Below are positions 10,699 through 61,565 of a stretch of DNA of 64,000 nt, piece after piece. Position 1 is the first letter of the stretch; every line of letters starts with the position of its first letter. This DNA comes from an uncultured Lishizhenia sp. GTDB lineage: Bacteria > Bacteroidota > Bacteroidia > Flavobacteriales_D > Crocinitomicaceae. The notes beneath the pieces are model-generated. The model was not told the origin of the DNA. It did not search any database and worked only from the letters and a program-made list of their open reading frames with translations. The stretch spans positions 3,448-67,447 of the forward strand of contig CAZINO010000001.1 in assembly GCA_964540625.1 (NCBI GenBank). Direction: 5' to 3'. The translations under genes were made by a program, and so were the position numbers.

Positions 10699-10702
10699 GG
10701 TG

Positions 10703-35065: not shown

Positions 35066-36022
35066 ATGACAACAACTCCCAATAAAATCTGTTCCCTTTT
35101 TAATATCCAATATCCGTTAATTCAAGGTGGAATGATCTGGTGTGCAGGTTGGGAACTCGCGGCGGCGGTTTCCAATGCAGGCGGACTTGGTCTACTAGGC
35201 GCCGGCTCTATGTACCCAGAGGTACTCGATGCACAAATTCAAAAATGCAAAGCTGCCACTGCCAAACCTTTTGGCGTGAATCTTCCGCTTCTTTACCCAA
35301 ACATTGAAGCGCATATACAAACAATCATCAAACACAAAGTGCCCATCGTTTTTACGAGTGCTGGAAACCCAAAAATTTGGACAGAAACACTTCAGAAAGA
35401 AGGCATTAAGGTTGTGCATGTGGTGTCTAGTGTCAAATTTGCCCTCAAAGCCCAAGCGGCCGGCGTAGATGCCATTGTTGCCGAAGGCTTTGAAGCAGGT
35501 GGACACAACGGTCGCGATGAAACCACAACACTCTGCCTGATTCCGATGGTGCGCAAAGCCATTTCTATTCCGCTCATTGCCGCTGGCGGCATCGGCGATG
35601 GCCGCGCCATGCTGGCCGTCATGAATCTCGGCGCCGATGGCGCCCAAGTTGGCAGCCGTTTTGTAGCCTCTTTGGAATCAAGTGCGCACCCACAATTCAA
35701 GCAAGCCGTCATCGATAGCCAAGAAGGCGATACACTGCTGACCCTCAAAGAACTTACGCCGGTCAGGTTGCTTAAAAACCCATTTTTTGAACAAGTTCAG
35801 GCTGCCTACCAGAATGGGGCCAGCCCTGAGGAGCTGGCCACATTACTCGGCCGCGGTCGAGCCAAAAAAGGTATGTTCGAAGGTGATCTCGAAGCCGGAG
35901 AACTTGAAATCGGGCAAATTGCCGGTAATTTCGATGCCATTTTGCCTGCAGCCGAAATTGTCCGAGGGTTCATTACAGATTTCAATACGGCAATCAGCAC
36001 ACAATCCCCATTTACCCTATGA
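35066..36022 (+). CDS. NAD(P)H-dependent flavin oxidoreductase (nitronate monooxygenase / FabK-like)
   Basis: YPLIQGGMIWCAGWELAAAVSNAGGLG...VAEGFEAGGH...IPLIAAGGIGDGR. Confidence 0.85.
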   Translation: MTTTPNKICSLFNIQYPLIQGGMIWCAGWELAAAVSNAGGLGLLGAGSMYPEVLDAQIQKCKAATAKPFGVNLPLLYPNIEAHIQTIIKHKVPIVFTSAGNPKIWTETLQKEGIKVVHVVSSVKFALKAQAAGVDAIVAEGFEAGGHNGRDETTTLCLIPMVRKAISIPLIAAGGIGDGRAMLAVMNLGADGAQVGSRFVASLESSAHPQFKQAVIDSQEGDTLLTLKELTPVRLLKNPFFEQVQAAYQNGASPEELATLLGRGRAKKGMFEGDLEAGELEIGQIAGNFDAILPAAEIVRGFITDFNTAISTQSPFTL

Positions 36023-46310: not shown

Positions 46311-46380
46311 AAAAGTCAATTTTTTGGCAAAATTCACTTTTTTCTGTCATTTGGTTTTATTTATATGTTTTATGATGAAC

Positions 46381-46408
46381 ATAAAAAAAGCCATCCGAAG
46401 ATGGCTTT
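46381..46408 (-). terminator. Intrinsic terminator with cUUCGg tetraloop; left copy of a 29-nt identical direct repeat (46380-46408)
   Basis: Minus-strand RNA AAAGCCAUC-UUCG-GAUGGCUUU followed by U7. Identical in sequence to 61537-61565. Confidence 0.85.
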
Positions 46409-47639: not shown

Positions 47640-47660
47640 CTTTTAAGTTTTTATTTACAA

Positions 47661-47687
47661 GAAAAGCCGCGTTCCGAAGAACGCGAC
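47661..47687 (-). terminator. Hairpin with cUUCGg tetraloop between the 1207-aa and 407-aa genes (terminator or attenuator)
   Basis: 7-bp stem cgcgttc (47668-47674) / gaacgcg (47679-47685). The minus-strand RNA loop is UUCG, followed by CUUUUCUU. It lies only 28 nt upstream of ATG 47639. Confidence 0.6.
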
Positions 47688-47714
47688 TTTTTTGTAAATG
47701 AGTTGATCAAATGA

Positions 47715-50700
47715 TTAATCAATAATAACCTTCTTCATTGTGCTGAAGTTTGCATTTTGTACGCGCACAAAATAAACTCCTGCATTTACGTTTGGAAGGG
47801 TAATTGCTAATTTACCTGAAGCTGGGATTTGACCAACTTCAGCAATTAAGCGGCCGTTCATGTCACAAACCGATACAGATGCACCTTCAACAGATTCAAC
47901 AGAGAATGTACCGTTGTTCGGGTTAGGATAAACTTGAACGTTCAACACATGTTGGATGGCTTCTGAAGATTTTGCAAACTTCATATCTACTGGCTTACCA
48001 TTCAAGATAGCAAGTTCAGTTTGGAAGTTTTTCTCAGATAATTGACCGTTTTCAGTGGTAACGATAAGTTCAGCTACATTGGCACCAGTTGCAAAGTTTG
48101 AAACATTGAAACCAGAGAAACGCAATGTCTGGTCAGCGTTGTTCATGAATGCAGTTGCCTCTGCAGTTTGGTCTAAAGACGCAACCTCTGAGTAGTTTGC
48201 ATTGTTGAATTTCACTGCAAAGTCTAAAGCATTTACTTGCTCAGTAGCTTCAAAAGAAACCGGGATGCGGAAAGTATTACCTTCTTGTTGAGCAGCAGTG
48301 AGGTCAAGAACAACAGCGCCTTCTGACTTCAACAATCCATCTGCAGTGTAGGTTGCATAGCTTGCGTTTACATCACCTAACATGATACCATAGTAAGTCT
48401 CTGTTTGGATTTCAGGACATGTTGCATAGTTACTCACGTTTGCAGCAATGCTGAAAGGAACGACTGGAACTTTTGCCTTCGAATACCCTACGTTATCGTT
48501 CGCTGGGAAAGTAGCTGAAATTTGGTAGGCAGCGTTACTTGTAGCTGTTGTTTTATCAACAAAGATCCAGTCTTTCGAAGGATGACCATTAGACACCCCA
48601 GCTGCAGAATAGTTCCAAGCCTGACGATACTCGGGAATAGCCAAAGTTGCACGTTGCTTGATTTGAGAAATATCACCAGCAGAAACAACACCATCTAGGT
48701 TGACATCAAGTGCAATGATCTGGTACACGTTTGGTGTAAAGCTACCATTCAACAACAATGTTTTGCCTAGAACGGCATCGGCAGCATTCACCAGCAACTG
48801 TACTGAGTTATTGTTAGAAATGTCACGAGAAATATTCAATTTCTGACCGTTGGTAAGTACGTGTGTAAATACGCCAGTAGTATTTGGCTGAACAGCTGTA
48901 GCAGAAATAAATGTAACTGGTGTTGCACTTAACGCAGCTGTTGTGGCAGTTGATAAGGTAACGGTAGTTCCTGAAATACTAGCCACAGTAGCGGTTGAAG
49001 GAACACCGTCGGCAACAACTTTCATACCAGCAACAACACCCGTAACAGTATTTGGAATAGTTAATGCAGTAGATGCAGAAGTAGCAGTTCCTGTTGTTGT
49101 AACGGCACCGTTAACGTTAGTAATCAAGAATGCGTTCGGGTTAGACGCGTTATACTTTATAGCTTGGTTATCAGACCAGAACAATAACGTGGCCGGGTAA
49201 TTCTGATCTTTGATAGAATACGCTTTGCCTGAATTAGCTGTTTTATTCAAAACTCCTGTAATGTAACTTTCTTGGATAGAAGAAATTGCAACAGTTGCTG
49301 AATCTAAACCTGCGAAAGCACTTGTTTTGGTAAACTGAACCGTGAAGATATCGGCGTTGGTTCCATTGAACTCAGCATTAGCTGGCGCATTACCGTTGAA
49401 GTTCAAAGAAATTTGCATGGTGCCGTTACTACCACTTGGTGTACCGATTGCAGTTGCGGTTTCAATATGCGAAGCATTTGAATAAAGTGTATTAGCTACA
49501 AATACATTTCCTGTAGGAGTCAATTTGGAAGCATCGTACGTAAGCGAAATGTCATAACCAATTACATTATCAACAGTGTATGTATTCGAAACGGCAACTG
49601 GCATTAAGTAGACCGTTTGATCACAGTTTTGAGTAACGTTTTTCACTTTGTATGGAAGCGCGTTCGGGTCAGCGATATCCAAAGTCACAGCAGCTGAAGT
49701 TGCTGTTGCTTGGAAGTTATCTGTTGCAATGGCAGTAAAAGTTTTGACACCTGGTGTGCTTGTCCAAGCATAAGACCAAGTATTACCAGATGTATTTGTA
49801 CCAGCTCCAACCAAGGTGCCGTTGACGTAGAAATTCACACCACTAATACCATCCACGTCTGTGGCTGTGGCCGTAATTGTAATTACTGTAGGGGCAGAAA
49901 TCAATTGGCTAGCTGTAGGATTTGTGAGTGTAACCGTTGGAGGGGTGTTTGCAATCACGTTCATAGAGGTTGTTGCAAAAGAACCTGTTAATCCAAGATT
50001 GTCTGTCGCTTTTGCTTGAACTGAATACGTACCATTCACGTTAGAAGGAACCGCATACGTTTTAGAATATGTACTACCTGAAAGCGTACCGTTACCGATT
50101 GACACAGAGTTAACAAAGAACTCAACAGATGCAACTGTACCATCGACGTCGTTAGCTGAACATGTAAAAGTAACGTTAGAACCTAGATAAGCTGTTGCCG
50201 GGGCAGTTAAGCTAGAAACGGTAGGCGCTTGGTTAGCCGCAACTGTAAAGTTATGGGCTGTAGATGTTGTAGTAGCACAATCATTGTCTGTTGCTTTGGC
50301 TGTAATCGCATGCGCACCATTTACAGAAGCAGTGTAAGAATAAGTGTAAGTTGAACCCGTGTTTGTAACTGTACCAGTTAATAACACACCATTATCATAG
50401 AATTCAACACCAGTAATAGTTCCGTTGTCGTTAGCAGTTGCGGTAAATGTCATTGACGTTCCTGTAATGATACCAGAAGTTGATGGCGATGAAGCCAAAG
50501 TAATTGTAGGAGGTGTATTTGCAACAAGCGTTAATGTTGAATGTGTGAAGTTTGTACTTCCACTTGGTGGATTAGAAGCATAATAGTTTTCAACAGCACC
50601 AGAGGTAGCATTTTGGATTTGAACATTTAATGCAAAGCTCAACTGACCAGTTGTTGTAAATTGGCCTATCAATACCATATTTGAAGATGTAGCACCAGTA

Positions 50701-51338
50701 ATACCACCTAAAACGGCCAAGGCACCATCAGTAATCGTTATTGAACCACTCGTTGAAGCATCTAATGCCGCAATACTTCCGAAACCACCTAAGCCATTTG
50801 TGGAAATGTTCGGAGACACAGGTAAATAACCATCTTGTGCACCAGATCCTTTAATTGGTAGACCAAAACATCCACCAGGGTTGTTGGTTAACAAACCATT
50901 TGATTGCGTAAAAACTGATCCATCAGTATCTTGAGACTTCAATACGCCTACTTTGCCAGTTTGTGTCATTCCCATGGTAAACCAAGAATCTAAAGAAGAA
51001 TGCGTATTTGCATTATTTCCTGATGAAAGTGTTGGTGTTGTTTGTACTGAGTTCGAAGGGTGATTGTAAAAACCTGTGGTAGAGTTTACAGTAAGAGAAT
51101 TACCAGGTACTGCAAAGATTTGATTTAACTTCCAACCAGCATTCATGTCAACAAATACGCGATAGGTAACAGAAGAAGTGGTAAGTGGAACCGCCGCACC
51201 TGTCTCTTGGCCAGCTACGTCAGCAGAATTAGCTTGATAGTATTTTTCAACTACTATGCCTTGTAACCCAACTTGCGAAAACGCTGTGCCTGCAAGCAGA
51301 AAAAAGCATAAATTTGTAAGTAAACGAAGTGTTTTCAT
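47715..51338 (-). CDS. 1207-aa surface protein: VEKYY domain + 3 Ig-like repeats + cohesin-like module + dockerin-like loop + second cohesin-like module + T9SS type A sorting domain
   Basis: Signal peptide, then the N-terminal domain shared with ORFs at 55114, 59523 and 60614. Repeats PPT[IV]TL...A.A.D.DG.I..VEF[YF]..G. IGYDISLTYDASKLTPTG. DVNLDGVVSAGD. CTD VYPNPNNGTFSV...AGVYFVRV. Confidence 0.85.
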   Translation of the reverse strand: MKTLRLLTNLCFFLLAGTAFSQVGLQGIVVEKYYQANSADVAGQETGAAVPLTTSSVTYRVFVDMNAGWKLNQIFAVPGNSLTVNSTTGFYNHPSNSVQTTPTLSSGNNANTHSSLDSWFTMGMTQTGKVGVLKSQDTDGSVFTQSNGLLTNNPGGCFGLPIKGSGAQDGYLPVSPNISTNGLGGFGSIAALDASTSGSITITDGALAVLGGITGATSSNMVLIGQFTTTGQLSFALNVQIQNATSGAVENYYASNPPSGSTNFTHSTLTLVANTPPTITLASSPSTSGIITGTSMTFTATANDNGTITGVEFYDNGVLLTGTVTNTGSTYTYSYTASVNGAHAITAKATDNDCATTTSTAHNFTVAANQAPTVSSLTAPATAYLGSNVTFTCSANDVDGTVASVEFFVNSVSIGNGTLSGSTYSKTYAVPSNVNGTYSVQAKATDNLGLTGSFATTSMNVIANTPPTVTLTNPTASQLISAPTVITITATATDVDGISGVNFYVNGTLVGAGTNTSGNTWSYAWTSTPGVKTFTAIATDNFQATATSAAVTLDIADPNALPYKVKNVTQNCDQTVYLMPVAVSNTYTVDNVIGYDISLTYDASKLTPTGNVFVANTLYSNASHIETATAIGTPSGSNGTMQISLNFNGNAPANAEFNGTNADIFTVQFTKTSAFAGLDSATVAISSIQESYITGVLNKTANSGKAYSIKDQNYPATLLFWSDNQAIKYNASNPNAFLITNVNGAVTTTGTATSASTALTIPNTVTGVVAGMKVVADGVPSTATVASISGTTVTLSTATTAALSATPVTFISATAVQPNTTGVFTHVLTNGQKLNISRDISNNNSVQLLVNAADAVLGKTLLLNGSFTPNVYQIIALDVNLDGVVSAGDISQIKQRATLAIPEYRQAWNYSAAGVSNGHPSKDWIFVDKTTATSNAAYQISATFPANDNVGYSKAKVPVVPFSIAANVSNYATCPEIQTETYYGIMLGDVNASYATYTADGLLKSEGAVVLDLTAAQQEGNTFRIPVSFEATEQVNALDFAVKFNNANYSEVASLDQTAEATAFMNNADQTLRFSGFNVSNFATGANVAELIVTTENGQLSEKNFQTELAILNGKPVDMKFAKSSEAIQHVLNVQVYPNPNNGTFSVESVEGASVSVCDMNGRLIAEVGQIPASGKLAITLPNVNAGVYFVRVQNANFSTMKKVIID
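47964..48326 (-). other. Cohesin-like module 2 of the 1207-aa protein (aa about 1005-1125)
   Basis: TFRIPVSFEATEQVNALDFAVKFNNANYSEVAS...QTLRFSGFNVS...NVAELIVTT. By-eye similarity to cohesin strand order. Confidence 0.4.
48648..48707 (-). other. Single dockerin/EF-hand-like Ca-binding loop plus helix in the 1207-aa protein (aa 878-897)
   Basis: DVNLDGVVSAGDISQIKQRA fits D-x-N-x-D-G-x(5)-D followed by an amphipathic helix. Confidence 0.45.
49203..49661 (-). other. Cohesin-like module 1 of the 1207-aa protein (aa about 560-712)
   Basis: VYLMPVAVSNTYTVDNVIGYDISLTYDASKLTPTG...GTMQISLNF...DIFTVQFTKTS parallels VEIPVYF...IANCDFVFRYDPNVLEIIG...IIVFLF...VFAKIRATVKS of clostridial type I cohesins (recalled from memory). 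Confidence 0.45.
49674..50516 (-). repeat. Three tandem Ig-like (bacterial Ig, about 92 aa) protein repeats in the 1207-aa protein
   Basis: Each copy reads PPT[IV]xL...F[TS]A.A.D.[ND]G.I..VEF[YF].NG...G......Y.Y......G.[HY].[IV].A.ATDN. Confidence 0.6.
50523..51272 (-). other. VEKYY domain, copy 4 (1207-aa protein, aa 23-272)
   Basis: GLQGIVVEKYY..VTYRVFVDM..GFYNHP..LDSWFTMG..GVLKSQDTDGS..ITDGALAVLGG..VLIGQFTTTGQLSFALNVQIQ. Confidence 0.7.
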
Positions 51339-51353
51339 AATATTTTGTTTTTA

Positions 51354-51398
51354 AAAAGAAGCGCCCACCGAAAAAGATGAAAAGAACAGTGGGCGCTT
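51354..51398 (-). terminator. Hairpin between the 727-aa and 1207-aa genes (terminator or attenuator)
   Basis: 10-bp stem aagcgcccac (51359-51368) / gtgggcgctt (51389-51398) with a 20-nt loop, followed on the minus-strand RNA by CUUUUU. It lies only 20 nt upstream of ATG 51338. Confidence 0.55.
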
Positions 51399-51422
51399 TG
51401 CCTTTATATTTAGGACTTATTA

Positions 51423-53606
51423 TTAATTACAGCTTGTACCGAATGCAGGAGCAAAGATCAAGAAGTCTGCTGTGTTGGTAGTACCATCACCATTCAAGTC
51501 TGTAGGGCAAGCCTGAACACCAGTTGTTGAACCAAGTATTTGTGAGTAAGACCAATCAGACAACCAATTATCACCAGCTACTGAAGAAAACGCACCACGG
51601 TAATTAGCTGGCTCAAAGAAACCATCCATTGGCGCTTGTGAACAACCAGAGCCTAGCGTAAGTGCAGGATTTGGTACTACATCGTTCTTTTGAGTTACTG
51701 CATTGGTTCCACCATTGATTGTAAAATCATAATTGAAGCCAGGCAATGTGTTACCTGTTACAATTACATTTCCGTCTGCACCGAACTGGGTTGTTGAAGC
51801 AGCAGGCGTAACAACTGAAGTTGTTGCGGCAAGCGATGACGCGCCAATTACGAATGGATTCGCCATTCCAATAAAGTGATTACATTTTACAATTAAGCTA
51901 GGTGTAGGTGTAGAACCAATTCCTTCAAGGGCAGCCAATGATGAACCAGACTGCGGTATAGTAGACCAATACTGAAAAGAGTTACCTTGACCTGCTGCAC
52001 CACGGTTAGTTAAAGAATTCTCTAAATTCAAACCATTTTTAAAATTCGCAAAAACAGAATTTGCAATTGTACCTTGTGCAGCTTCTTTCATGTTAATGGC
52101 AGCCAAACCACGGTTATCAGCAGAACCTGTAGCTTTAGCATTCCCCATAATTGTCGCATTGTAAATTTTTGGGTTGGACTTTAATGCAGCATTCGAAGTG
52201 TTGTCATCAGAATCACACTCAAAGCCATTATCGTTATCGAAAGAAATAGCATTCGTTTCTGTAGAAGATCCTGCCTGCTGCGCTTTCATTCCAAATAGAA
52301 ACTGTGCACGTCCTGACCAACCTAGATCGTAGTCATACATATCATCGTTACCGAAAAGCGTCGTGCAGTATTTGAGGTCAACAGTACCACCAAAAAGCTC
52401 GATATTATCATCGGCACAAGAAACAATCTCGATGTGCTCAATTTTAGTACCACGACCTACAGATGCAAGCGTTAAACCGTTGATCTCAGAACCAACAAGA
52501 AGGTTTGCACCAGAGTGGCGAATCGAAACATAAGTCATGACACCTGAGTTATCATTATCATTAAATGTAGCTGTTGAAGTATAATATGCACCTACATAGG
52601 ATGCGACAGACCCACTAGTTCCTGATACAGGAGCAGAACCAGAATTAGGTGCTACGTAAGTGATAGAAGTGAAGTAACCTGTTTGGCCACCATTTGGATA
52701 TGTTCCGTCAAAGGTGATTTCTGCACCAGCAGCAATTGCACCTGTAAGAGCAGCGGACAAGGTTAATTGCTTTGCTGAAATACTCAAAATGGTGGTACCT
52801 GCAGGAATACCTGAACCGGACACAGCCTGACCTTGAACAACATAACCAGGAGCATTACTTGCCAATTCGATTTTTGTATTACCTATTCCATTGCATCCAG
52901 AGGCCGGAGTAGCAGATGTTGCCAATAGTCCAAATGTATATGCACCTGAAGGCGAGGTAGCTTGAACTGTTCCTGATGGAACATTAAGAGCCACACCAAA
53001 CTGATCTTGTGGATAAGAAGAAGCAAAGCCTTCTAATACACCTAATCCGTCTGCAATAGCCATTTTACCACCTTGTCCCGGAATGAATGGACCATTTGCA
53101 GCAAGTGTTAAATTGTTTGATGCTGTACCGCAAATCAAGATACCACCCCACTTACCTTTATTTGCAACTCCATAAGAACCATTCAATGGATCTGCTGCTG
53201 CTGTAAATACAATTGGGCAATCTTCAACCCCAGGAGCGATAATTTTACCACCTCTTTCAATGATCAAGGCGCGAGCTGCAGCAACATTTGTCCCTGCATC
53301 AGAGGCTTTAATTACTGTGCCAGGTTCAATCGTAATTGTGGCACCAGAACCGATATATAGCTTTTCATCAAGAGTCCAAATTGTACCACATGTTAAAGTT
53401 ACATTTCCAGAAGTCAATTCTTTACCGTAAGCAGCTGCGGGAAGATTGGTCCAAGATCCTACTGAAGTGATCGAAGCAGAAGGCCTTGAAGAAACCGTCG
53501 GACAGCCACAGGCGGCACCTAAGTTTTGTTGAGCAAACAAGGAGTTGCTCATTGTGGCTAATCCGAGCATGGAAAATAAGCCAACAAGTAAATTTCTTTT
53601 TTTCAT
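51423..53606 (-). CDS. 727-aa secreted beta-helix-like protein with a Cys-bracketed dockerin-like C-terminus and no T9SS CTD
   Basis: Signal peptide. Gly/Thr/Asn-rich repetitive beta pattern with HIEIVSCADDNIELFGGTVDLKYC...GNDDMYDYDLGWSG. Near the C-terminus ANYRGAF...NWLSDW. Terminal ACPTDLNGDGTTNTADFLIFAPAFGTSCN. Confidence 0.8.
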   Translation of the reverse strand: MKKRNLLVGLFSMLGLATMSNSLFAQQNLGAACGCPTVSSRPSASITSVGSWTNLPAAAYGKELTSGNVTLTCGTIWTLDEKLYIGSGATITIEPGTVIKASDAGTNVAAARALIIERGGKIIAPGVEDCPIVFTAAADPLNGSYGVANKGKWGGILICGTASNNLTLAANGPFIPGQGGKMAIADGLGVLEGFASSYPQDQFGVALNVPSGTVQATSPSGAYTFGLLATSATPASGCNGIGNTKIELASNAPGYVVQGQAVSGSGIPAGTTILSISAKQLTLSAALTGAIAAGAEITFDGTYPNGGQTGYFTSITYVAPNSGSAPVSGTSGSVASYVGAYYTSTATFNDNDNSGVMTYVSIRHSGANLLVGSEINGLTLASVGRGTKIEHIEIVSCADDNIELFGGTVDLKYCTTLFGNDDMYDYDLGWSGRAQFLFGMKAQQAGSSTETNAISFDNDNGFECDSDDNTSNAALKSNPKIYNATIMGNAKATGSADNRGLAAINMKEAAQGTIANSVFANFKNGLNLENSLTNRGAAGQGNSFQYWSTIPQSGSSLAALEGIGSTPTPSLIVKCNHFIGMANPFVIGASSLAATTSVVTPAASTTQFGADGNVIVTGNTLPGFNYDFTINGGTNAVTQKNDVVPNPALTLGSGCSQAPMDGFFEPANYRGAFSSVAGDNWLSDWSYSQILGSTTGVQACPTDLNGDGTTNTADFLIFAPAFGTSCN
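51426..51509 (-). other. C-terminal dockerin-like module C-x2-D-x-N-x-D-G-x5-D-F-L-x-F-x(6-7)-C (aa 700-727)
   Basis: CPTDLNGDGTTNTADFLIFAPAFGTSCN is a 12-residue EF-hand-type loop plus helix enclosed by two Cys. I recall the same layout in C-terminal 'GC-type dockerin' anchors of other phyla. Confidence 0.5.
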
Positions 53607-53642
53607 TTTTAAATGTTTTTAGTTGATGTAAAATTAGACCAC

Positions 53643-53669
53643 AAAAAAAAGTTGGCTGTGAAGCCAACT
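53643..53669 (-). terminator. Intrinsic terminator ending the six-gene operon
   Basis: 8-bp stem agttggct (53650-53657) / agccaact (53662-53669), 4-nt loop, followed on the minus-strand RNA by U8 (A-run 53643-53650). Confidence 0.8.
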
Positions 53670-53752
53670 TTATCTGTTTAAAAAGTTTGATGTCTATTTG
53701 AATTTGCTCAGGATTAAGCCAATGTTAGTATCAACAATTTGAGTCTTTAATT

Positions 53753-54409
53753 TTAAAAATTATAGAGCACGGCGGTCTGGAAAGCCAGTTGATATGGGCG
53801 TTGTGGCACATTACTTGCGCCTAGAGAGTTCAGAGAATAGCTTAACATTAAACTTGGCTTGATGCTCCATTTGAGCGTGACTGGTAGCTGGGCACCCAAA
53901 TGAACAGCCGCACTGAATTGCCAAGTTGTATTTGGTGTGTATGCCGTTGTCTGCACTTCATTCCAACCCTCTTGCAGAATATAAGACATCTGGCTACCGA
54001 TTAGTTTGGATGACAGCACAGAAAAACCTACGAATGGCTGCCAAGTTTCGGTTATTACATTGTATTCCATTCCTAAAGGTATACTCATATAATTCAAAAT
54101 ATGCTGATAAGTATTGATACCAGGCAGACTATTTGCTAGAAAATTATAACGGCAATTCTGAAAGCGTAAACCACCCACAAATGTCAATTCTCTGGTCAAA
54201 CGACGCGCATATGTCAGGCCAAGTTCTTGAGCCATACCGCCGGTTTGTAAACTATCCATGATGCGGTTGAAACCAGGATTTTCCGTAGATTTCTGGTAAC
54301 TCATGGCTGTATAACCCAATTGATAAAAAGCACCAATTTGATTTTTTTCTTGCACCTGTGCAAAAGCGATAGTGCCTAAGAAAACGAAGAATAAGAGTAG
54401 CTTTTTCAT
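53753..54409 (-). CDS. Small outer-membrane beta-barrel (porin-family-like) protein
   Basis: Signal peptide (IAFAQ), alternating beta-strand pattern, C-terminal aromatic residue (...AVLYNF). 218 aa. Confidence 0.6.
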   Translation of the reverse strand: MKKLLLFFVFLGTIAFAQVQEKNQIGAFYQLGYTAMSYQKSTENPGFNRIMDSLQTGGMAQELGLTYARRLTRELTFVGGLRFQNCRYNFLANSLPGINTYQHILNYMSIPLGMEYNVITETWQPFVGFSVLSSKLIGSQMSYILQEGWNEVQTTAYTPNTTWQFSAAVHLGAQLPVTLKWSIKPSLMLSYSLNSLGASNVPQRPYQLAFQTAVLYNF

Positions 54410-54412
54410 GAT

Positions 54413-55117
54413 TTAATTTTTGACGCAACGGATACTCATGCCATAACGCTGATCTGCAAATTGTCTGAAAATTTGAGTGCGTTGGTGGCTGATTGAACGA
54501 TAAATAGCTTTGTTTGGCTGCTGAGTCGCCGTCCAAAAATAAGCTTCTAAACCATTTGCTGAAATTTGGCCATTGTATAAAACAACACCACCCGGATTGA
54601 TATTCAAAGCGTATTTGTTATTTCCAAAATGAATGCTGGCTGTTGGCCAGTTGTTCGAATTCTGGGGTAGAATTCCATTAACCTCATCTTGCCCGCGCCA
54701 AGCCATTAAGTCTGTTTCAGCACTATCCATACCGATAGAACGCTCTAGTTTTTTCCAATCTTCGTCGGTTGCAATATGCCAACCTTCGGGGGCTAACCCT
54801 CTGGGGTCAAGTACGGTTGCATAATTATAAAGTTGACCATAAAGGCTATCTGCAATAGTTTTGTACCCTGGACCTGCTTGCCAACCAGTTGTATCATTTG
54901 TTGCAAAAAAAGGGATTAAAGTACCATCGTTAAAACGCGTTGTTTTGAGATTCTCGCACATCCACCATTGGTCATTTATTTTAACCGTTTGATAGGAATT
55001 ACCATCAATATCCGTAACTGTACCATATTCCAATACGATTTCTTTGGGTGTATCTTTGTTGCACGAGACCAAGCCAACAAGACCTAAAAAAATAAGTACG
55101 ACGATTGAATTTTTCAT
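54413..55117 (-). CDS. Lipoprotein with Fibrobacter succinogenes major paralogous domain (TIGR02145-like)
   Basis: Lipobox LVSC. DIDGNSYQTVKINDQWWMCENLKTTRFNDG...YGQLYNYATV...APEGWHIATDEDWKKLE...FWTAT...SIRCVKN. Confidence 0.8.
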   Translation of the reverse strand: MKNSIVVLIFLGLVGLVSCNKDTPKEIVLEYGTVTDIDGNSYQTVKINDQWWMCENLKTTRFNDGTLIPFFATNDTTGWQAGPGYKTIADSLYGQLYNYATVLDPRGLAPEGWHIATDEDWKKLERSIGMDSAETDLMAWRGQDEVNGILPQNSNNWPTASIHFGNNKYALNINPGGVVLYNGQISANGLEAYFWTATQQPNKAIYRSISHQRTQIFRQFADQRYGMSIRCVKN

Positions 55118-56448
55118 TTTGTCTTGATAAGAATTTCTGATTTTGTGAGCTCACCAACTGTAAAGTCAAGGAAATACACGCCTGCTTCTTGTTCAGCCAG
55201 GCCCATATTTATCTCTAAATTATTTTCTGTAGCCATACTTGTGTCTGTTGCCAAAACAACACCGAAAGCATTATATAATTTCCAAGAAATTTGTTGTCCT
55301 TCAAAATTACCGTTGGCTACAAGTTGTGTCTCGCCGTCAGTAGGATTCGGCACCATCTTGATTTCAAAGTTACTCTGCCATAATTCTGGGCAAACTACAG
55401 CAATATCTCTTCCACCGCAAGCCCCAGGGTAACAACAAAGCCCCGGAACATTGATGTTTACAGATGGGTCATAGTTACAAGCATTGGTGTCCATACAACC
55501 CATTACAACCGGTGTGATACATGCGCCATCAAGTAGACAGGCAAATGCTGGGCTAAATTCTAGATAATTTGGATCGGTACACCCACACTGAAATGGATAG
55601 CTTAAAAATGGGCTGAATACTTCGTTTGCAGCAAGTAAGGTATCTTTAGCTACATACTTCAAAGTACTTGGCGTCCCATTTGTATTTACTTCTACTTCGA
55701 TATTTAATTCAAAAGATAGTTCTCCTGCTGTTGTGAGTTGAGCAATAAGAACCTGATTCTCTTGTGGATCAACACCTGTTACACCACTATTTTGCATTAA
55801 AAACTCCTCGGAGTTGAATGAAGTTCCGCTGGTTACTGATCCGAAAATTGTATTGTCTTGACCTGTGGCAATGTCTACTAGACCAACTGTAAGCCAATTA
55901 CTTGGTACATTTACCATTGTATCCATTCCATCGGCAGTCGGTAATGAAATCCCTAATTGCGTGTCTGAATTATTAAGTAGCCCTGAAGCAATACCCGCGC
56001 TCCCACCATCGTTATTTGTACCGCCGATAAAAGAACCATCGGTATCAGCAACTTTAGGAATCCCAAAATATGTTTTTCCAGCTTGCGTTTTTGTAGTTTG
56101 GCCGAGAGTCATCCAGGTATCCAAAGCTACCAAGCCTTCACTGTAACGGTTTTTTAAAAACTCTTTGGCATATGTTTGTCCATCAGTTGCATGATTATAA
56201 AAAGGTGCGGTGCTTTCGAATACAACTGGATGTCCAGTACTGCCATAGACAGATTTCAAACGCGTGTTCGGCAATAAATCAATGTAGATCCTGTAAGTAG
56301 TGGTTCCAGCTTGAATTGTTCCTCCAGTAACATCTGTGGCGTCATTAGCATCTGTTATATAATATTTTTCAACGATAACCTTTTCCAATTGCGCCTTTAA
56401 AAGTGAAAAGCTACAAATGGCAATCAATGTGTAAAGTATTTTATTCAT
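55114..56448 (-). CDS. 444-aa secreted protein: VEKYY domain + Cys-rich linker + T9SS type A sorting domain
   Basis: LEKVIVEKYY..TTYRIYIDL..PFYNHA..LDTWMTLG..ADTDGS..VLIAQLTTAGELSFELNIEV. 10 Cys in aa 288-353. CTD MVPNPTDGETQL...AGVYFLDF. Confidence 0.8.
   Translation of the reverse strand: MNKILYTLIAICSFSLLKAQLEKVIVEKYYITDANDATDVTGGTIQAGTTTYRIYIDLLPNTRLKSVYGSTGHPVVFESTAPFYNHATDGQTYAKEFLKNRYSEGLVALDTWMTLGQTTKTQAGKTYFGIPKVADTDGSFIGGTNNDGGSAGIASGLLNNSDTQLGISLPTADGMDTMVNVPSNWLTVGLVDIATGQDNTIFGSVTSGTSFNSEEFLMQNSGVTGVDPQENQVLIAQLTTAGELSFELNIEVEVNTNGTPSTLKYVAKDTLLAANEVFSPFLSYPFQCGCTDPNYLEFSPAFACLLDGACITPVVMGCMDTNACNYDPSVNINVPGLCCYPGACGGRDIAVVCPELWQSNFEIKMVPNPTDGETQLVANGNFEGQQISWKLYNAFGVVLATDTSMATENNLEINMGLAEQEAGVYFLDFTVGELTKSEILIKTK
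55390..55587 (-). other. Cys-rich linker with two copies of a GC[TM]D-x(2-3)-[AY]-x-NY/-like motif
   Basis: QCGCTDPNYLEFSPAFACLLDGACITPVVMGCMDTNACNYDPSVNINVPGLCCYPGACGGRDIAVVC. Confidence 0.5.
55594..56388 (-). other. VEKYY domain, copy 3 (444-aa protein, aa 21-285)
   Basis: See the alignment blocks listed in findings. Confidence 0.7.
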
Positions 56449-59400
56449 TATTGAATTTTATAAGAGAAACCAAATTGGAAAGTAGTTCCATAACGGAAGC
56501 GGTCAAAATCAACATAAGAGCCGTCCGAAAGTTGATATGCCCTGCGAACAGGTGCATTAAGTATATCTCTCACAGTTAAGCTCATGGCGTAATGTTTGCC
56601 AAGTGTTTTTGAAACTTTAAAATCAACAGTATGGCGAGGCATTTCGTATACATTGGCAAAGCCTTTTAAAATACCGGCAATTACCAAGCGTGGGCCTTGA
56701 ACATTGTATGAAACAGTTGCTGTGAGGCCAAGTGAATCTGAATTATAGCTTAGAATTCCATTGACAATGTATGGCGCTTGCCCAAACATGGTGCGCACTA
56801 CAGTATCAACGGGGAAATACTCAATTTGATTATTATTCAAGATGATAAAGTCCTTTCTAACAAACTGAGATTGCGACTTAACAACCGTCACATTAGACCT
56901 AAACTCCAGGTGCTTACCAAAATTTTTACCGACCTCAAATTCTAGTCCAGCTACGTATGAATTCTCGTTGTTGTCCCAGGTGATACCTGAGCTACCAAAA
57001 CCCATTTCAATGTGGTTCAAGAAGGTCTTGTAAAAAGCACTGACAGAGAAATTGTCTTTATTTGCAAAGTATGACTCATAACGCAAGTCGTAATTGGTAA
57101 TGTTGGTCAGCTTCAAGTTAGAATTCCCATAAATTAAAGTACGGAATTCATTGTCATATACAGCCGCATCGTTCATTTCGCGAATGTTTGGGCGTGCTAC
57201 ACTTTTGCTGTAATTCAAACGCAAATTGGTGATGGTATTCTTTTCGGATTGAAACTTAAAAATCATACTTCCCGACGGCAAGAAAGACCATTCATCTAAA
57301 ATCCCCGGATTGATGATTGGGTAGCCCGGTACACTCACCCTTCGGCCGTCATTGCGCTCATAACCGAGCACATGGTATTTATATACATCTGAAAAAAGTG
57401 CAACGTGCTCAGCGCGTAAACCGCCATTGAAGCGAATGATTTTATTGAACTCAAAATCCAAAAGGCCATATGCTGCAGTAATGGCATTGGTACCAATGGT
57501 GTGGTTCCAATCCCAATTGCGAGGATCGTAATAATAATTGAGGAAGCCGTTTTGCATGACCATTTGGTTCGTATCCAAAAATGCATCCAAATCTTCATTT
57601 TGAAGTGTGGTCGGAATCGCATTACCAGCCATCAAAAAGTACTCCTCCATTTTAGAGTTACGGTCGGTACTTTGAAAAGCACCACCAAATTTGAGCTTTC
57701 GGATCAGCTTCACGCTGTCAGCAGCTAATGGCACTTCGAGTGATAATCGAGAATCAAAAAGGTTTTCATCTAAATAGCGGTTATAGCGGCGTATGCCATC
57801 GCCTGCATTCGGAGAAAACTGGTAACTACCTATGAGTTCATTAAATGAGGAGAATGCAACATATTCTGTCAACTTAAAATCTGGCACGACGCTAGAACCG
57901 TCGGTGTAAGAAGCATTAGCATCTATTTTGATACGCAACCTCGGAACATAGTGCTGAGAGGCATATTGGTAAATGCGCTGCTGACGCTGCTCATAAAAAA
58001 TATTCTTTCTTACACTCAACTCTTCATTGGATTCTCCGATGGGTTGAGTCATAAATGAAGCCACATCATTCGTCCCTGAAACATTTGGCATGAGAAGTAA
58101 TGAAAACTTATTGTTGTCATTGATTTTATAGGCCAAATTCAACAACATGCTCCACGAATTTATCTCGCGACTCATGAGTGCATCATCGGTAAACAAGATT
58201 TGATAGTCGAGGTCTTCCGGACCAATTCTTTGAGAAATTCCATTAGGGTCGAATCGCACACTGTTTCCGTATCTAAAACCAAAGATGTAGCCCAAGGGCT
58301 TCCCAAGGAAATCTACTTGGTTACCGATACTGAAACTTTGCGTGAAATTGATGGGCGCTCTTCTAAACTTTGTGTTCCAAGAATTGGAAAAACCATTATT
58401 ATAACTTGTGCCATTGGGATTGATGAGCGACCAGGCCTGCGGCTTCAACGTTGAATTGAAGGTGGTAAGGGCAGCCAAAACAGCCGTTGGGTCATTAACT
58501 TGCGACGGATTAAGCAGTCCCAACTCAACCATACCCAATGCCATGTAGGTTTGGTTTTCATTACTCGCATCTTGCCATCCTGTCACACCTAAATTGGCAT
58601 AAAATTCGCCTAAACCTAGTGCAACCATTGTTTGGTAATTGCTTGGACTTAGATTTGGTTTGGCAAAATTGATACCATCATTGAAACCTCTAAAACCGTT
58701 GTCAAAGCCTAACCAGTCTGTGCCGCTTCTGTCAGAAGTAATGAAATCCTTGAAAGTAGACTGCACGTTGTAACCAAACTGAGACTCCACATTCACCATC
58801 AATTTATCCGGATAATCTTTAGTCTCGACTGAAATATAAGCCCCGGCCCAATCGCCAGGTAAATCTGGGGCTTGTGTTTTGGAGATTACTATATTATCAA
58901 TTAATGCCGTAGGGAAAATGTCTAACTTGATGTTATTAGTCAGTGGGTCTAGCGTTGGAATGCGTGAACCATTGAAATTGGTGCGAATGTAGCGGTCTCC
59001 AATACCACGCACGGTAATCATACCGCCGTTGGTAGAAACACCAGAAACCCTAGCTACAGCATTGGTAACGTTGGCATCGCCGGTTTTCTTCATGGTTTCG
59101 CTCGAAATGTAGTCAATCGAAACAGGTGAACTCACCTTCACGCGCTCCATATAATAGTCATTTGCTTTGGTGGCTTTACGCGTTACGGTGGTTCCTTTTA
59201 CTTCTTGAATTTTTTCGCGTTCTTTCATAGTGAAGTCTTGGACCACGACTTCATTATTTTGAAGTTGTAATACTTTGGATAGTGTATCATAACCTAAAAG
59301 TGTGATGCGCAATTGATGCGGTTTGGCATCTGGGAACTTCAAGGAATAAAGGCCATCCATGTCGGTTTTACCAAGAAATCCGGAGGTATCAGAAAGAATT

Positions 59401-59519
59401 ACTTTGGCTCCGTTTACTGGCTCACCATTGACATCAACCACTTTACCTCTTACCGTACCCTGAGCAAAAGAAACAACCCCTACCAAAAGGCAGATAAAAA
59501 ATAATTTGAAACGCAACAT
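56448..59519 (-). CDS. TonB-dependent receptor with N-terminal carboxypeptidase-regulatory-like domain; no adjacent SusD/RagB gene
   Basis: GTVRGKVVDVNGEPVNGAKVIL...GLYSL (CarbopepD_reg-like). Plug VSIDYISSETMKKTGDANVTNAVARVSGVS...ITVRGIGDRYIRTNFNGSRIPTLDP...LDIFPTALIDNIVISKTQAPDLPGDWAGAYISVETK. A long beta-barrel follows. 1023 aa. Confidence 0.88.
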   Translation of the reverse strand: MLRFKLFFICLLVGVVSFAQGTVRGKVVDVNGEPVNGAKVILSDTSGFLGKTDMDGLYSLKFPDAKPHQLRITLLGYDTLSKVLQLQNNEVVVQDFTMKEREKIQEVKGTTVTRKATKANDYYMERVKVSSPVSIDYISSETMKKTGDANVTNAVARVSGVSTNGGMITVRGIGDRYIRTNFNGSRIPTLDPLTNNIKLDIFPTALIDNIVISKTQAPDLPGDWAGAYISVETKDYPDKLMVNVESQFGYNVQSTFKDFITSDRSGTDWLGFDNGFRGFNDGINFAKPNLSPSNYQTMVALGLGEFYANLGVTGWQDASNENQTYMALGMVELGLLNPSQVNDPTAVLAALTTFNSTLKPQAWSLINPNGTSYNNGFSNSWNTKFRRAPINFTQSFSIGNQVDFLGKPLGYIFGFRYGNSVRFDPNGISQRIGPEDLDYQILFTDDALMSREINSWSMLLNLAYKINDNNKFSLLLMPNVSGTNDVASFMTQPIGESNEELSVRKNIFYEQRQQRIYQYASQHYVPRLRIKIDANASYTDGSSVVPDFKLTEYVAFSSFNELIGSYQFSPNAGDGIRRYNRYLDENLFDSRLSLEVPLAADSVKLIRKLKFGGAFQSTDRNSKMEEYFLMAGNAIPTTLQNEDLDAFLDTNQMVMQNGFLNYYYDPRNWDWNHTIGTNAITAAYGLLDFEFNKIIRFNGGLRAEHVALFSDVYKYHVLGYERNDGRRVSVPGYPIINPGILDEWSFLPSGSMIFKFQSEKNTITNLRLNYSKSVARPNIREMNDAAVYDNEFRTLIYGNSNLKLTNITNYDLRYESYFANKDNFSVSAFYKTFLNHIEMGFGSSGITWDNNENSYVAGLEFEVGKNFGKHLEFRSNVTVVKSQSQFVRKDFIILNNNQIEYFPVDTVVRTMFGQAPYIVNGILSYNSDSLGLTATVSYNVQGPRLVIAGILKGFANVYEMPRHTVDFKVSKTLGKHYAMSLTVRDILNAPVRRAYQLSDGSYVDFDRFRYGTTFQFGFSYKIQ

Positions 59520-59522
59520 GAA

Positions 59523-60617
59523 TTAAAGTTTGATGATTCTTTGGGTTGCTTGGCTTTTTGTACCTTTTACCTTAAGGATATAAACACCGGCAGGTAAAGT
59601 TTGAACATCCAATTTTTGACTGTTCGTCATAAATGGTACAGCCATGAGTGTTTTACCTTCAAGGTCTAACACTTCAAGTTGGTATGTGTCCATTTGTTCT
59701 TGTGTTAACCAATTTAGCTGCAATAGATCAGCCGTAGGGTTCGGAAATACAACTAGGTTATTCATTGGGTCAGGAATTAAATTTTCGTCAACACTAGCAC
59801 TAGGATTTGAGTTATAGATGAGCGTAGAATCCGTAAATTCACCAGTGCCTGGGAAATTGGCAACATACGTTTCACTGCCACCGGCAATTGGTGTTGCAAT
59901 CTGCAAATTGAGTTCAAAAGAGAAGTCACCGTCGGTCGTAAACTGCCCGAGTAAAACATGATTGGAAGGCGTTACACCTTCTACACCACCCAGCGCTGCA
60001 ATTGCGCCATCACTAATGACTATAATACCTCCAACAACTTGGTCTATTACATCCAACTCATTTGTTACGCCCAACACATTCGGGACAATTGGTGTACCAG
60101 GCATTAGACCATCTACACCGTTAGCACCCATAATTGGAGCACCCATTGCAGCCACAAAATTGGTGAGTATTCCCTGATTATTTCCAATGGTACCATCTGT
60201 GTCTTCTGATTTGAGAACACCAACCTGACCTGAGCAAACACCACCAATTGTCAAATACGAGTCGATGAGTGTGGTATTTTTCTTGGTGTTATTTAAACTT
60301 GTTCCTTGATAAACAGAAACACCGTAATTTGGGTCATTAAAAAAAGCTGTAGTTGTGTTGAACTTCAATTCATGACCAGGTAAGCCAAACATTTGAATCA
60401 CTTTATATCCGGGTAATAGATTCGCGTAAATGCGATATGTCACAGATCCGGTACGAAGCGGATAGGCAGCCAACTGGTCTACAGCGTTCATGGAATCTGC
60501 CATATCAGATACATAGTATTTTTCTACGACTATGCCTTCTAATCCTTGTTGAGCAAATGAATTGTAATTAAAACATACAGCTAAAAATGCACCAATAGTA
60601 ATTTTTATATTTTTCAT
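59523..60617 (-). CDS. 364-aa secreted protein: VEKYY domain + T9SS type A sorting domain
   Basis: GLEGIVVEKYY..VTYRIYANL..AFFNDP..IDSYLTIGG..GVLKSEDTDGT..ISDGAIAALGG..VLLGQFTTDGDFSFELNLQIA. CTD VVFPNPTADLLQL...AGVYILKV. Confidence 0.8.
   Translation of the reverse strand: MKNIKITIGAFLAVCFNYNSFAQQGLEGIVVEKYYVSDMADSMNAVDQLAAYPLRTGSVTYRIYANLLPGYKVIQMFGLPGHELKFNTTTAFFNDPNYGVSVYQGTSLNNTKKNTTLIDSYLTIGGVCSGQVGVLKSEDTDGTIGNNQGILTNFVAAMGAPIMGANGVDGLMPGTPIVPNVLGVTNELDVIDQVVGGIIVISDGAIAALGGVEGVTPSNHVLLGQFTTDGDFSFELNLQIATPIAGGSETYVANFPGTGEFTDSTLIYNSNPSASVDENLIPDPMNNLVVFPNPTADLLQLNWLTQEQMDTYQLEVLDLEGKTLMAVPFMTNSQKLDVQTLPAGVYILKVKGTKSQATQRIIKL
59808..60548 (-). other. VEKYY domain, copy 2 (364-aa protein, aa 24-270)
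   Basis: Closest paralogue of the copy in the 1207-aa protein. Confidence 0.7.
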
Positions 60618-61432
60618 TTTTTGGGTTTTTGTATAAGTGTTGGGTGGGTTAATTCCTCCGCGCTTGGGTTGGTTGCTACGTAGCGAATAGATTTACCGTC
60701 AGGCGTCCCAATTTGAATATTCAATTCATAAGAGAGCTTTCCTGCGGTGGTGAGCTGAGCAATCAATATAGCGTTCTTGTATGGTTTAGGAGCAGCTGCG
60801 CCTTTGCCCAAACACGCCCATGCGCCATCGGTAACTATAACTTCACTTTGATTAGACTCAGCAAACAAGCCTTTTAAGGGCTCATCCAATTGATAAATGG
60901 TCAACTGCGGCAAACTATCTGAACCTCGGTAAATCATACCTGGTGCATCGCGGAATGAAAATTCAGCATCACGATCTTTCGTATTTTCAAAATAACCCTT
61001 CTCCCATTCGATAACCACCGGTAACGGTTTAGTCTGGTATTTCAACGGTACAGCAAAAAATGATTCCGCGCAAGCTCCAATTGTAATCCAAGAATCTAGT
61101 ATCGTTAAGTTTTTCTTTAATGACTTATCTGGTATCACGTTTGGATGTGAATTTCCAATTCCAGGATGGTTATAAAAGTTTTTAGTACTGGTTAATCTCA
61201 ATGGATGTTCTGGCATCCCATAAACTGCCTGAAGGGTGTAGCCACTATCAAGCTCGACAAAGATGCGGTAAGTAACAAGTCCTTTTTCTTTGGCACCGCT
61301 TACGTTACTTTTCTGATAATCGTTTTTAGAAAGCGTATAATATTTTTCAACAAAAACTTCCTTCAAACCAACTTGGGCTGAAACAAAATTTGAGACAATA
61401 ACTACTAGTGTAAAAAGTACAATTCTAAGCAT
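60614..61432 (-). CDS. 272-aa secreted protein consisting only of a signal peptide and a VEKYY domain (no anchor)
   Basis: GLKEVFVEKYY..VTYRIFVEL..NFYNHP..LDSWITIG..VTDGAWACLG..ILIAQLTTAGKLSYELNIQIG. The track start at 61438 is TTG; I use ATG 61432 (MLRIVLFTLVV). Confidence 0.75.
   Translation of the reverse strand: MLRIVLFTLVVIVSNFVSAQVGLKEVFVEKYYTLSKNDYQKSNVSGAKEKGLVTYRIFVELDSGYTLQAVYGMPEHPLRLTSTKNFYNHPGIGNSHPNVIPDKSLKKNLTILDSWITIGACAESFFAVPLKYQTKPLPVVIEWEKGYFENTKDRDAEFSFRDAPGMIYRGSDSLPQLTIYQLDEPLKGLFAESNQSEVIVTDGAWACLGKGAAAPKPYKNAILIAQLTTAGKLSYELNIQIGTPDGKSIRYVATNPSAEELTHPTLIQKPKK
60635..61372 (-). other. VEKYY domain, copy 1
   Basis: Most divergent copy. The central Gly/Asp-rich segment is replaced by a Lys/Glu-rich one (KYQTKPLPVVIEWEKGYFENTKDRDAEF). 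Confidence 0.65.
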
Positions 61433-61435
61433 GTG

Positions 61436-61443
61436 CAAGTTTA
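61436..61443 (-). promoter_or_regulatory. Near-consensus -7 box TAAACTTG directly upstream of the first operon gene
   Basis: The reverse complement of caagttta (61436-61443) is TAAACTTG, with one mismatch to TAnnTTTG. It lies 3 nt before ATG 61432, the same geometry as the perfect box before the hydrolase gene at 15469. Confidence 0.3.
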
Positions 61444-61537
61444 CGCACGCTAAATTTAAAGTACTTTACCGGCTTATTAAGATTAGTTTAGCAATTGGTC
61501 AATGGATTGTTAGGGCATTAAAAGTCCTATTCTGTGC

Positions 61538-61565
61538 ATAAAAAAAGCCATCCGAAGATGGCTTT
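61538..61565 (-). terminator. Intrinsic terminator of sucC with cUUCGg tetraloop; right copy of the 29-nt identical direct repeat (61537-61565)
   Basis: cataaaaaaagccatccgaagatggcttt is identical to 46380-46408. Confidence 0.85.

Follow-up and report, generated by a model that had tools for sequence, protein, structure and literature searches.

Gene organization of the locus

The DNA examined here (the window) is a stretch of 64,000 nucleotides (nt) from contig CAZINO010000001.1 of an uncultured Lishizhenia sp. A first-pass annotation made from this sequence alone had singled out six closely spaced genes for a TonB-dependent receptor, three paralogues sharing a domain that it did not recognize, a Fib_succ lipoprotein and a small outer-membrane barrel. 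We find that this region is the core of a conserved nine-gene locus of about 15 kb that is present in uncultured freshwater Flavobacteriales. The shared domain, called VEKYY here, is an undescribed family located at the mature N-terminus of type IX secretion system (T9SS) cargo proteins, and the cluster probably constitutes an undescribed nutrient-capture machine.

All six genes reside on the minus strand, and their coordinates in a listing of open reading frames (ORFs) match those reported earlier exactly. The first encodes V1 (60614–61432; 272 amino acids (aa)), which is recognized by a VEKYY profile and carries the domain behind a signal peptide. The ORF listing begins this gene with a TTG codon at position 61438, and the ATG at 61432 is the conventional start. 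V2 (59523–60617; 364 aa) joins a VEKYY domain to a T9SS type A sorting domain (PF18962, TIGR04183). The TonB-dependent receptor follows (56448–59519; 1023 aa), in which a SusC-type N-terminal extension (PF13715, PF13620) precedes a Plug domain (PF07715) and a barrel of the TonB-Xanth-Caul type (TIGR01782). V3 (55114–56448; 444 aa) has a Cys-rich spacer between its VEKYY domain and a T9SS type A sorting domain (TIGR04183). The last two genes encode a possibly surface-exposed FISUMP (Fib_succ_major) lipoprotein (54413–55117; 234 aa; PF09603, TIGR02145) and a small outer-membrane beta-barrel protein (53753–54409; 218 aa), the latter assigned through its positional orthologues.

Direct reading of the sequence reproduces the junction types described previously: an ATGA overlap between V1 and V2, a 3-nt gap (TAA-TTC-ATG) between V2 and the receptor, a TAATG overlap between the receptor and V3, a second ATGA between V3 and FISUMP, and a second 3-nt gap (TAA-ATC-ATG) between FISUMP and the barrel. 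The proposed six-gene unit is indeed conserved and tightly coupled, but it is not complete, as the same strand carries three more conserved genes downstream, for a total of nine. These are p727 (51423–53606), V4 (47715–51338) and p407 (46416–47639). Every signal peptide encoded in the locus is followed by a Gln residue, a pattern known in Bacteroidota as the ‘Q-rule’ for signal peptidase I substrates.

Conservation of gene order and spacing

A genome scan with VEKYY as the query covered one genome per GTDB species, and the best 80 of 270 relatives were inspected, yielding 77 loci in roughly 70 assemblies. VEKYY genes are present in these loci by construction; for the genes of the receptor, FISUMP, barrel and p727, the search itself does not account for their presence. 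All locus-bearing assemblies are metagenome-assembled genomes (MAGs), recovered from lakes, rivers, ponds and bioreactors, with the Mendota, Rimov and Zurich time series among their sources. Their taxonomic labels are Cryomorphaceae, Crocinitomicaceae, Flavobacteriales, Bacteroidia or Bacteroidota, and a few bear evidently automatic species names. Wherever a locus is long enough to display it, mapping of ORFs almost always reveals V1-V2-receptor-V3-FISUMP-(barrel)-p727-V4 as the gene order, down to about 41% identity.

The median gaps at the five operon junctions are 5, 20, 5, 1.5 and 3 nt across the 77 loci. Because such short gaps recur throughout this collection, the tight spacing exceeds what chance or shared descent would produce. 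The interval between the barrel gene and p727 measures at least 144 nt in 20 of the 20 loci in which both genes were detected.

The association that the first-pass annotation had proposed between the receptor, VEKYY proteins and FISUMP is conserved in other genomes. For 41 complete receptor genes, at least 2.5 kb of sequence was available on either side. In 39 of these cases VEKYY genes are the immediate neighbours both upstream and downstream, and a FISUMP gene is located no more than 2.5 kb downstream. The other two receptor genes are the two halves of a tandem duplication (L058, positions 4995–11130), in a locus that is otherwise standard and has three VEKYY genes upstream. The p727 gene is found at most 9 kb downstream of the receptor in 27 of 30 loci, V4 follows p727 in 36 gene pairs, and in a subset of loci (L026, L048, L050, L060, L062 and L080) p407 follows V4 and closes the conserved block.

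The genes accC and sucC flank only the five closest loci, and in two of these icd-pyrC is located between sucC and V1 rather than after the locus. A look-up by a beta-helix homologue (53% identity) independently retrieved the same nine genes, including the PKD/T9SS gene, amid unrelated flanks that encode polyphosphate kinase, Ppx-GppA and a glycosyltransferase.

A hybrid TonB-dependent receptor without SusD

The Plug domain of the receptor (residues 129–218) matches PF07715 with 39.5 bits (cutoff 23.9), and its N-terminal extension matches the CarboxypepD_reg families PF13715 (6e-12) and PF13620 (2e-10). The C-terminal 400 residues align to the barrel of TIGR01782 with 144.5 bits, which is below the cutoff of 310, and there is no match to TIGR04056 (SusC) at E ≤ 0.01. 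These two models, both named in the first-pass annotation, give the same picture for the 19 receptor orthologues: TIGR01782 is the best model in all 19 (best E 1.5e-56), and TIGR04056 is touched weakly by three. Likewise, when the receptor is used for a profile search of the PDB, the SusC homologues 8aa4 and 5t3r and RagA (6sli) are matched over the N-terminal extension only.

The plug motif ITVRGIGDRY...NGSRIP is of the Xanthomonas/Caulobacter type, and direct reading locates a candidate TonB-box beta-strand segment, QEVKGTTVTRKA, between the N-terminal extension and the plug. The Plug, with many invariant positions, and the periplasmic N-terminal extension are kept across the 19 orthologues. 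By these sequence criteria, the receptor is a hybrid that carries a SusC-like extension on a non-SusC barrel. Family scans also agree with the previous statement that the receptor lacks a SusD partner, as no Pfam SusD family is matched by any of the nine locus proteins, and none was found among the neighbours in three further loci (L078–L080).

An undescribed domain in four secreted paralogues

V1, V2 and V3 share about 270 aa at 31–33% identity, including the invariant VEKYY motif. A profile search detects exactly four VEKYY genes among all ORFs of the window, all of them in this locus. Thus, the locus does encode a set of VEKYY proteins, as had been noted, but they number four rather than three, and the absence of a sorting domain from one of them, V1, is conserved. 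Each of the four keeps its own length class and position across genomes, and non-redundant roles are therefore indicated.

V1 scores 421 bits against the VEKYY profile, and its sequence has no Pfam or NCBIfam match, no T9SS sorting domain and no lipobox. Its 41 orthologues are 264–292 aa in length, without a C-terminal extension the size of a sorting domain. About two-thirds of them end in a Lys-rich tail, such as NSENKKNKSKKK or TTKKEKRKKKKK, and V1 of the window ends with LIQKPKK (60614–60640). This tail could serve as an electrostatic anchor to the membrane or to lipopolysaccharide, or as a sorting signal.

The sorting domain of V2 is matched by PF18962 (7e-13, 49 bits) and TIGR04183 (1.7e-13, 50.3 bits), and in an AlphaFold2 (AF2) model the C-terminal domain superposes on the solved T9SS sorting domains 8qb1 and 8glk_D with target-normalised TM-scores of 0.75–0.83. 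V3 exceeds the cutoff of TIGR04183 (29.4 versus 23 bits) but falls just below that of PF18962 (25.3 versus 27 bits). Precomputed annotation lists PF18962 for many V3 orthologues of 444–445 aa, one of which is named ‘T9SS type A sorting domain-containing protein’. These results uphold the earlier assignment of type A sorting domains to two of the three reported paralogues. The accompanying description of these proteins as ‘covalently displayed’ is an extrapolation from Porphyromonas; the sequences predict export by the T9SS, after which the proteins may be anchored or released. Between the VEKYY and sorting domains of V3 (approximately residues 288–345), the Cys-rich spacer contains repeated motifs resembling GC(T/M)D..ACNYDP and has no Pfam match. 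V4 (1207 aa) scores 400 bits against the VEKYY profile. It carries three Big_7 domains (6.6e-26) together with modules that resemble dockerin and cohesin, and has a T9SS type A sorting domain (PF18962, 9e-13; sorting-domain scores of 48.9 and 48.7 bits).

The domain that the first-pass annotation could not recognize proved to be uncharacterized. It has no match in Pfam (a local copy as well as a newer precomputed release), NCBIfam or PADLOC, and profiles built from 4 and from 35 VEKYY sequences match PDB sequences in the sorting domains only. An AF2 model of V2 (predicted local distance difference test score (pLDDT) of 75.8, with disordered loops) depicts a beta-rich core assembled from N-terminal (residues 26–88) and C-terminal (residues 198–269) strands, and several invariant Asp, Asn and Gly residues reside in a loop-rich insert within this core. 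Foldseek searches with this model against the PDB and BFVD returned only sorting-domain or Ig-like matches, with TM ≤ 0.2 over the VEKYY part. Candidate identities that emerged from a lenient Pfam search of 35 members were rejected: the match to HL_N-beta is short (residues ~33–65) and does not exceed 17.5 bits (cutoff 27), and the matches to TcfC and DUF3244 fall in the C-terminal sorting domain. A defence system was likewise discarded, given that PADLOC yields no match.

An exhaustive HMMER search of 1.84 billion representatives places VEKYY in 1445 clusters at E ≤ 1e-3 and in 575 clusters at E ≤ 1e-30. In most of the matches listed, the domain occupies residues 1–270, just after the signal peptide. 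Among 15 long family members sampled, 14 end in a T9SS sorting domain. The partner modules in these 15 proteins are Ig (Big_7), fn3, TSP3, EF-hand, MAM and dockerin, and no enzyme domain was found beside VEKYY in any of them. Some family representatives (P0241, P0242, P0248 and P0250) have two to four tandem VEKYY copies, or carry the domain internally in proteins of about 2000 aa with MAM, TSP3 and EF-hand modules.

The FISUMP lipoprotein and the small barrel

The FISUMP protein is matched by PF09603 (2.3e-42, 145.8 bits, cutoff 33.9) and TIGR02145 (3.7e-27, 96.1 bits, cutoff 41.65). Its lipobox reads LVSC and is followed by NKDTPKE in the window copy, and the signal-peptide Cys is kept in 54 of 54 orthologues, all of which substantiates the original call of a Fib_succ lipoprotein. 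At least two acidic residues are present among the seven that follow the Cys in 41 of the 54 orthologues, and 19 of the 54 carry the exact K-(D/E)2 surface-export signal of lipoproteins as defined elsewhere (PMC5080379). Surface exposure of FISUMP is plausible from these sequence features. FISUMP is listed among the C-type-lectin-like targets of diversity-generating retroelements, which fits a ligand-binding role.

The small barrel of the window has no Pfam match. Its positional orthologues make the first-pass call of an outer-membrane barrel recognizable, as 14 of 20 match OMP_b-brl_2 (PF13568, best 4e-19) and PF13505; the C-terminus of the window copy reads ...LYNF. Two other identities were considered and set aside. 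Matches of the small barrel to the T9SS components PorT, PorG and PorP are sporadic and weak, and a type V pilus or fimbrial operon, in which FISUMP is frequent, finds no counterpart here because no fimbrillin or Mfa families are matched.

Downstream genes and dockerin-like features

The product of p727 is a secreted beta-helix protein with a dockerin-like C-terminal loop. Beta_helix_4 (PF28492) is assigned by precomputed annotation to P0121, a protein 99% identical to p727, as well as to positional orthologues and to all 120 homologues listed. This model comes from a newer Pfam release, and an older Pfam copy without it gave p727 no match even at E 10. Other annotations could be hidden by the same version gap. 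Residues 702–725 of p727 match dockerin 2y3n_B (E 0.008, or 0.0025 with a profile), and apart from this dockerin-like tail the protein has no sequence relative in the PDB. Its AF2 model is poor (pLDDT 65.5), and Foldseek returns weak matches to beta-helix tailspikes, lyases and depolymerases (E ≥ 7.7e-4, TM ≤ 0.2). In view of this poor model and these weak scores, we do not claim that p727 is an enzyme.

The p407 protein contains two PKD domains (PKD_4, 1e-27) and a T9SS sorting domain (PF18962, 3e-6; sorting-domain score of 27.9). Several matches in this part of the locus hint, at the sequence level, at an assembly of the cohesin–dockerin type formed by p727 and V4. Dockerin_1 matches V4 with 19.3 bits (0.0014), below the cutoff of 22.9; Cohesin matches p407 below threshold (E 0.47); and a profile of the C-terminal half of V4 has dockerins and one cohesin as its top PDB matches, all below threshold (E 0.05–0.7). 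A VEKYY family member from elsewhere, P0264, does exceed the Dockerin_1 cutoff (24.6 versus 22.9 bits). Inspection by eye locates a module of about 55 aa (G..V.G.GIP.GTT..SIS...TLS.A.T) in both p727 (approximately residues 240–300) and V4 (approximately 745–800), and dockerin-like EF-hand loops in p727 (approximately 700–727) and V4 (approximately 850–896).

Outside the locus, two large proteins of the window (30977–35110, 1377 aa; 38597–41839, 1080 aa) end in a sequence of the type FVPNAF(S/T)P..., resembling T9SS type B (gliding-associated) C-terminal domains.

Terminators and edges of the locus

The six-gene unit is closed by an intrinsic terminator that lies on the minus strand, together with a conserved box, at positions 53640–53671. 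A hairpin scan finds a 10-bp stem followed by a T8 run at 53648–53671, after the barrel gene, which confirms the strong terminator reported at this place. The stem is kept in five close relatives save for one or two substitutions, and the sequence before it is divergent. In the same relatives, a conserved TAATTTTA box stands after the terminator and ahead of p727.

The promoter evidence is less firm. The ‘-7 box’ noted upstream of V1, TAAATTTA, agrees with the Bacteroidota consensus TAnnTTTG at seven of eight positions, so its description as near-consensus is accurate, but relatives read TAAATGTA, TAAATGAA, TAAATGTT and GAAAAGTT at this position, and the element is not exactly conserved and is weak. 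A scan for sigma-70 promoters returned 45 sites versus 40 expected from shuffled sequence, with no excess, and that model is not appropriate for Bacteroidota.

GC-rich hairpins with T-runs are also located between p727 and V4 (51339–51422) and between V4 and p407 (47640–47714). Because terminator-like hairpins part these genes as well, p727, V4 and p407 are probably transcribed on their own; each of the three may be transcribed separately or be under read-through control.

An exact 29-nt terminator hairpin, AAAGCCATCTTCGGATGGCTTTTTTTATG, is present in two copies in the window versus zero expected. Both copies are on the minus strand: the upstream one (61537–61565) is the sucC terminator, the downstream one (46380–46408) follows p407, and together they form the edges that bracket the whole 15.1-kb locus. 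The window has the order sucC-terminator-locus-terminator-icd-pyrC, whereas two close relatives (L002 and L003) have sucC-terminator-icd-pyrC-V1. This differing placement of icd-pyrC indicates that, between close relatives, either the block or icd-pyrC has changed position, and recombination at the 29-nt repeat is a possible cause.

Comparison with known systems

The locus resembles SusC/SusD loci such as Sus and RagAB in two respects: its TonB-dependent transporter bears a carboxypeptidase-regulatory-like N-terminal extension, and the transporter gene shares an operon with genes for several surface accessory proteins. It differs from them in having no SusD, a barrel that is not of the TIGR04056 type, and no carbohydrate-active enzyme, regulator or inner-membrane transporter. 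Moreover, most of the accessory proteins encoded here are not lipoproteins but T9SS cargo carrying an unknown domain.

Precedents exist for Bacteroidota TonB-dependent transporters that operate with surface proteins other than SusD, among them BtuBG, a cobamide relay and Xus (PMC10404256, PMC13616437, PMC13142918). In its workings, the locus would come closest to this expanding group. Like the locus described here, the BtuB-BtuG(-BtuH/J) and XusAB systems of gut Bacteroides combine a SusD-free transporter with dedicated surface proteins and have no degradative enzymes (PMC10404256, PMC13616437, PMC13142918, PMC6143338). Their surface proteins, however, are lipoproteins of known folds and ligands, unlike the single FISUMP and the three or four T9SS-routed VEKYY paralogues of this locus, and no sequence similarity of the locus proteins to BtuG, BtuH or XusB was detected.

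TIGR01782 receptors belong to carbohydrate loci of Xanthomonas, Caulobacter and marine Gammaproteobacteria, with SuxA, MalA and NagA as examples. The receptor of this locus shares with them its best-matching model in 19 of 19 orthologues, the plug motif RG(I/L)G...NG(S/R) and a SusD-free setting. Yet it reaches less than half of the TIGR01782 cutoff, and those receptors have no SusC-type N-terminal extension and are encoded near glycoside hydrolases, regulators and inner-membrane transporters, not near T9SS cargo.

Utilization loci with T9SS-secreted parts are also known from Flavobacteriia, for example the chitin locus of F. johnsoniae with ChiA. As in such loci, genes for T9SS cargo lie here beside that of a TonB-dependent transporter, and the cargo presumably binds its substrate, or acts on it, outside the cell. 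Those loci retain SusC/SusD pairs and cargo recognizable as enzymes, unlike the unknown cargo domain and the absence of SusD seen here. The T9SS itself has been reviewed (PMC5445135, PMC11205867). Cohesin–dockerin (cellulosome-like) assemblies offer a further parallel through the dockerin-like loop of p727 and the Dockerin_1-like and cohesin-like stretches of V4, although every such match in the window stays under its threshold and the locus encodes no cellulosomal enzyme. No description of this locus emerged from literature searches on systems joining TonB-dependent receptors with T9SS cargo, on FISUMP function and on TIGR01782 in Bacteroidota.

Proposed function and alternative explanations

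We consider the chances slightly better than even that the locus builds a SusD-independent, TonB-dependent apparatus for capture and import in the outer membrane. In such an apparatus the receptor would be the importer, as suggested by its intact Plug, its Xanthomonas/Caulobacter-type motif and its SusC-like periplasmic extension. V2, V3 and V4 would be exported by Sec and then by the T9SS. If this cargo is held by its C-terminus, the N-terminal VEKYY domain would be the module farthest from the cell, like a binding head, and by analogy with SusE/F-type surface glycan-binding proteins or BtuH/J relay proteins it may bind the ligand. FISUMP, as a lipoprotein with a C-type-lectin fold, would be flipped to the surface, where it may cap or feed the receptor, and the small barrel may anchor or scaffold the assembly. 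V1, with its basic tail and no sorting domain, would stay in the periplasm or on the membrane. The second gene set, with its own terminator-like hairpin after each gene, would add the beta-helix protein, which may dock onto V4 as an Ig/cohesin/dockerin-like scaffold.

The plug and barrel of the TIGR01782 type, together with the beta-helix neighbour, make the ligand lean towards an oligosaccharide or a polymer-derived substrate. Because the locus has no recognizable hydrolase, regulator or inner-membrane transporter, a scarce small nutrient is also a possible ligand, as in BtuBG and XusAB. A more specific version of the capture-and-import proposal is an undescribed class of uptake machine that would be typical of abundant freshwater Flavobacteriales. 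It has the T9SS deliver a capture layer that replaces lipoproteins, with VEKYY heads that bind ligand, the beta-helix protein docked on the cohesin/dockerin-like V4, and V1 employing the common fold at the periplasmic side or riding out with a partner. We offer this arrangement tentatively, with the balance of probability leaning against it.

Several observations weigh against an importer of this kind. The loci all come from one order-level lineage, were retrieved by a VEKYY query and represent the best 80 of 270 relatives. The receptor scores under the trusted cutoff of every subfamily model, and many type A cargoes of the T9SS in Flavobacteriia are released in soluble form instead of being anchored. 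The VEKYY domain, without a sequence or fold relative, gives no clue to the ligand, and the beta-helix evidence for a depolymerase, drawn from model comparisons, is weak. The locus lacks genes for a glycoside hydrolase, a lyase, a peptidase, a regulator and an inner-membrane transporter, which sets it apart from most characterized utilization loci.

The T9SS-displayed VEKYY proteins might be the equivalent of SusD in the strict sense, forming a lid on the extracellular face of the receptor and handing over substrate. This would account for VEKYY genes that abut the receptor gene on both sides with gaps of 0–20 nt in nearly all loci, for a locus that has no SusD, and for the location of VEKYY as the distal module of surface cargo. 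We nevertheless regard it as unlikely. Three to four non-redundant paralogues, one of them without a sorting domain, are unlike a single lid, and cargo that is anchored by its C-terminus or released differs in geometry from a cap that is lipidated at its N-terminus. The lipoprotein-cap pattern of SusD, BtuG and XusB (PMC10404256) is better fitted by the possibly surface-exposed FISUMP, which is at least as good a candidate for the receptor cap as the T9SS proteins.

The partner modules of VEKYY (Ig, fn3, TSP3, EF-hand, MAM and dockerin) are typical adhesin parts, V4 resembles a scaffold with its dockerin-like and cohesin-like modules, and the locus is devoid of catabolic genes, a regulator and an inner-membrane transporter. 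All of these features would suit a surface structure for adhesion to algae, particles or other cells, or a coat, in which both barrels are membrane anchors and nothing is imported. However, adhesins normally need no gated barrel of 1023 aa coupled to them by overlapping stop and start codons, and a Plug and N-terminal extension conserved in 19 orthologues are hard to explain for a passive anchor, so that adhesion seems to us distinctly improbable. That the genes adjoin merely through shared descent in one lineage, with no joint function, is very improbable. All loci do come from related Flavobacteriales MAGs, but gene order and very short junctions persist to about 41% protein identity, the flanks are unrelated, and the block has evidently moved.

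Significance

In Bacteroidota, large or scarce nutrients enter the cell chiefly through TonB-dependent transporters, and searches of genomes and metagenomes recognize such loci by their SusC/SusD pair. Pipelines that are based on SusC/SusD cannot see a deeply conserved locus without SusD or a recognizable enzyme, and with four copies of an unannotated domain, even though about 70 species-level genomes of Flavobacteriales from lakes and rivers carry it. The principle of a transporter served by surface helpers is already known; the locus differs in the predicted T9SS routing of most of these helpers and in the presence of an undescribed domain in four non-redundant paralogues. Structure prediction and binding assays can draw on the locus for a defined set of proteins. 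If the VEKYY proteins do form a capture layer, the T9SS would be shown to be able to supply accessory proteins to a transporter, and a function would be gained for a family of about 1400 representative clusters, along with a pointer to a class of substrate in the turnover of carbon or micronutrients in fresh water.

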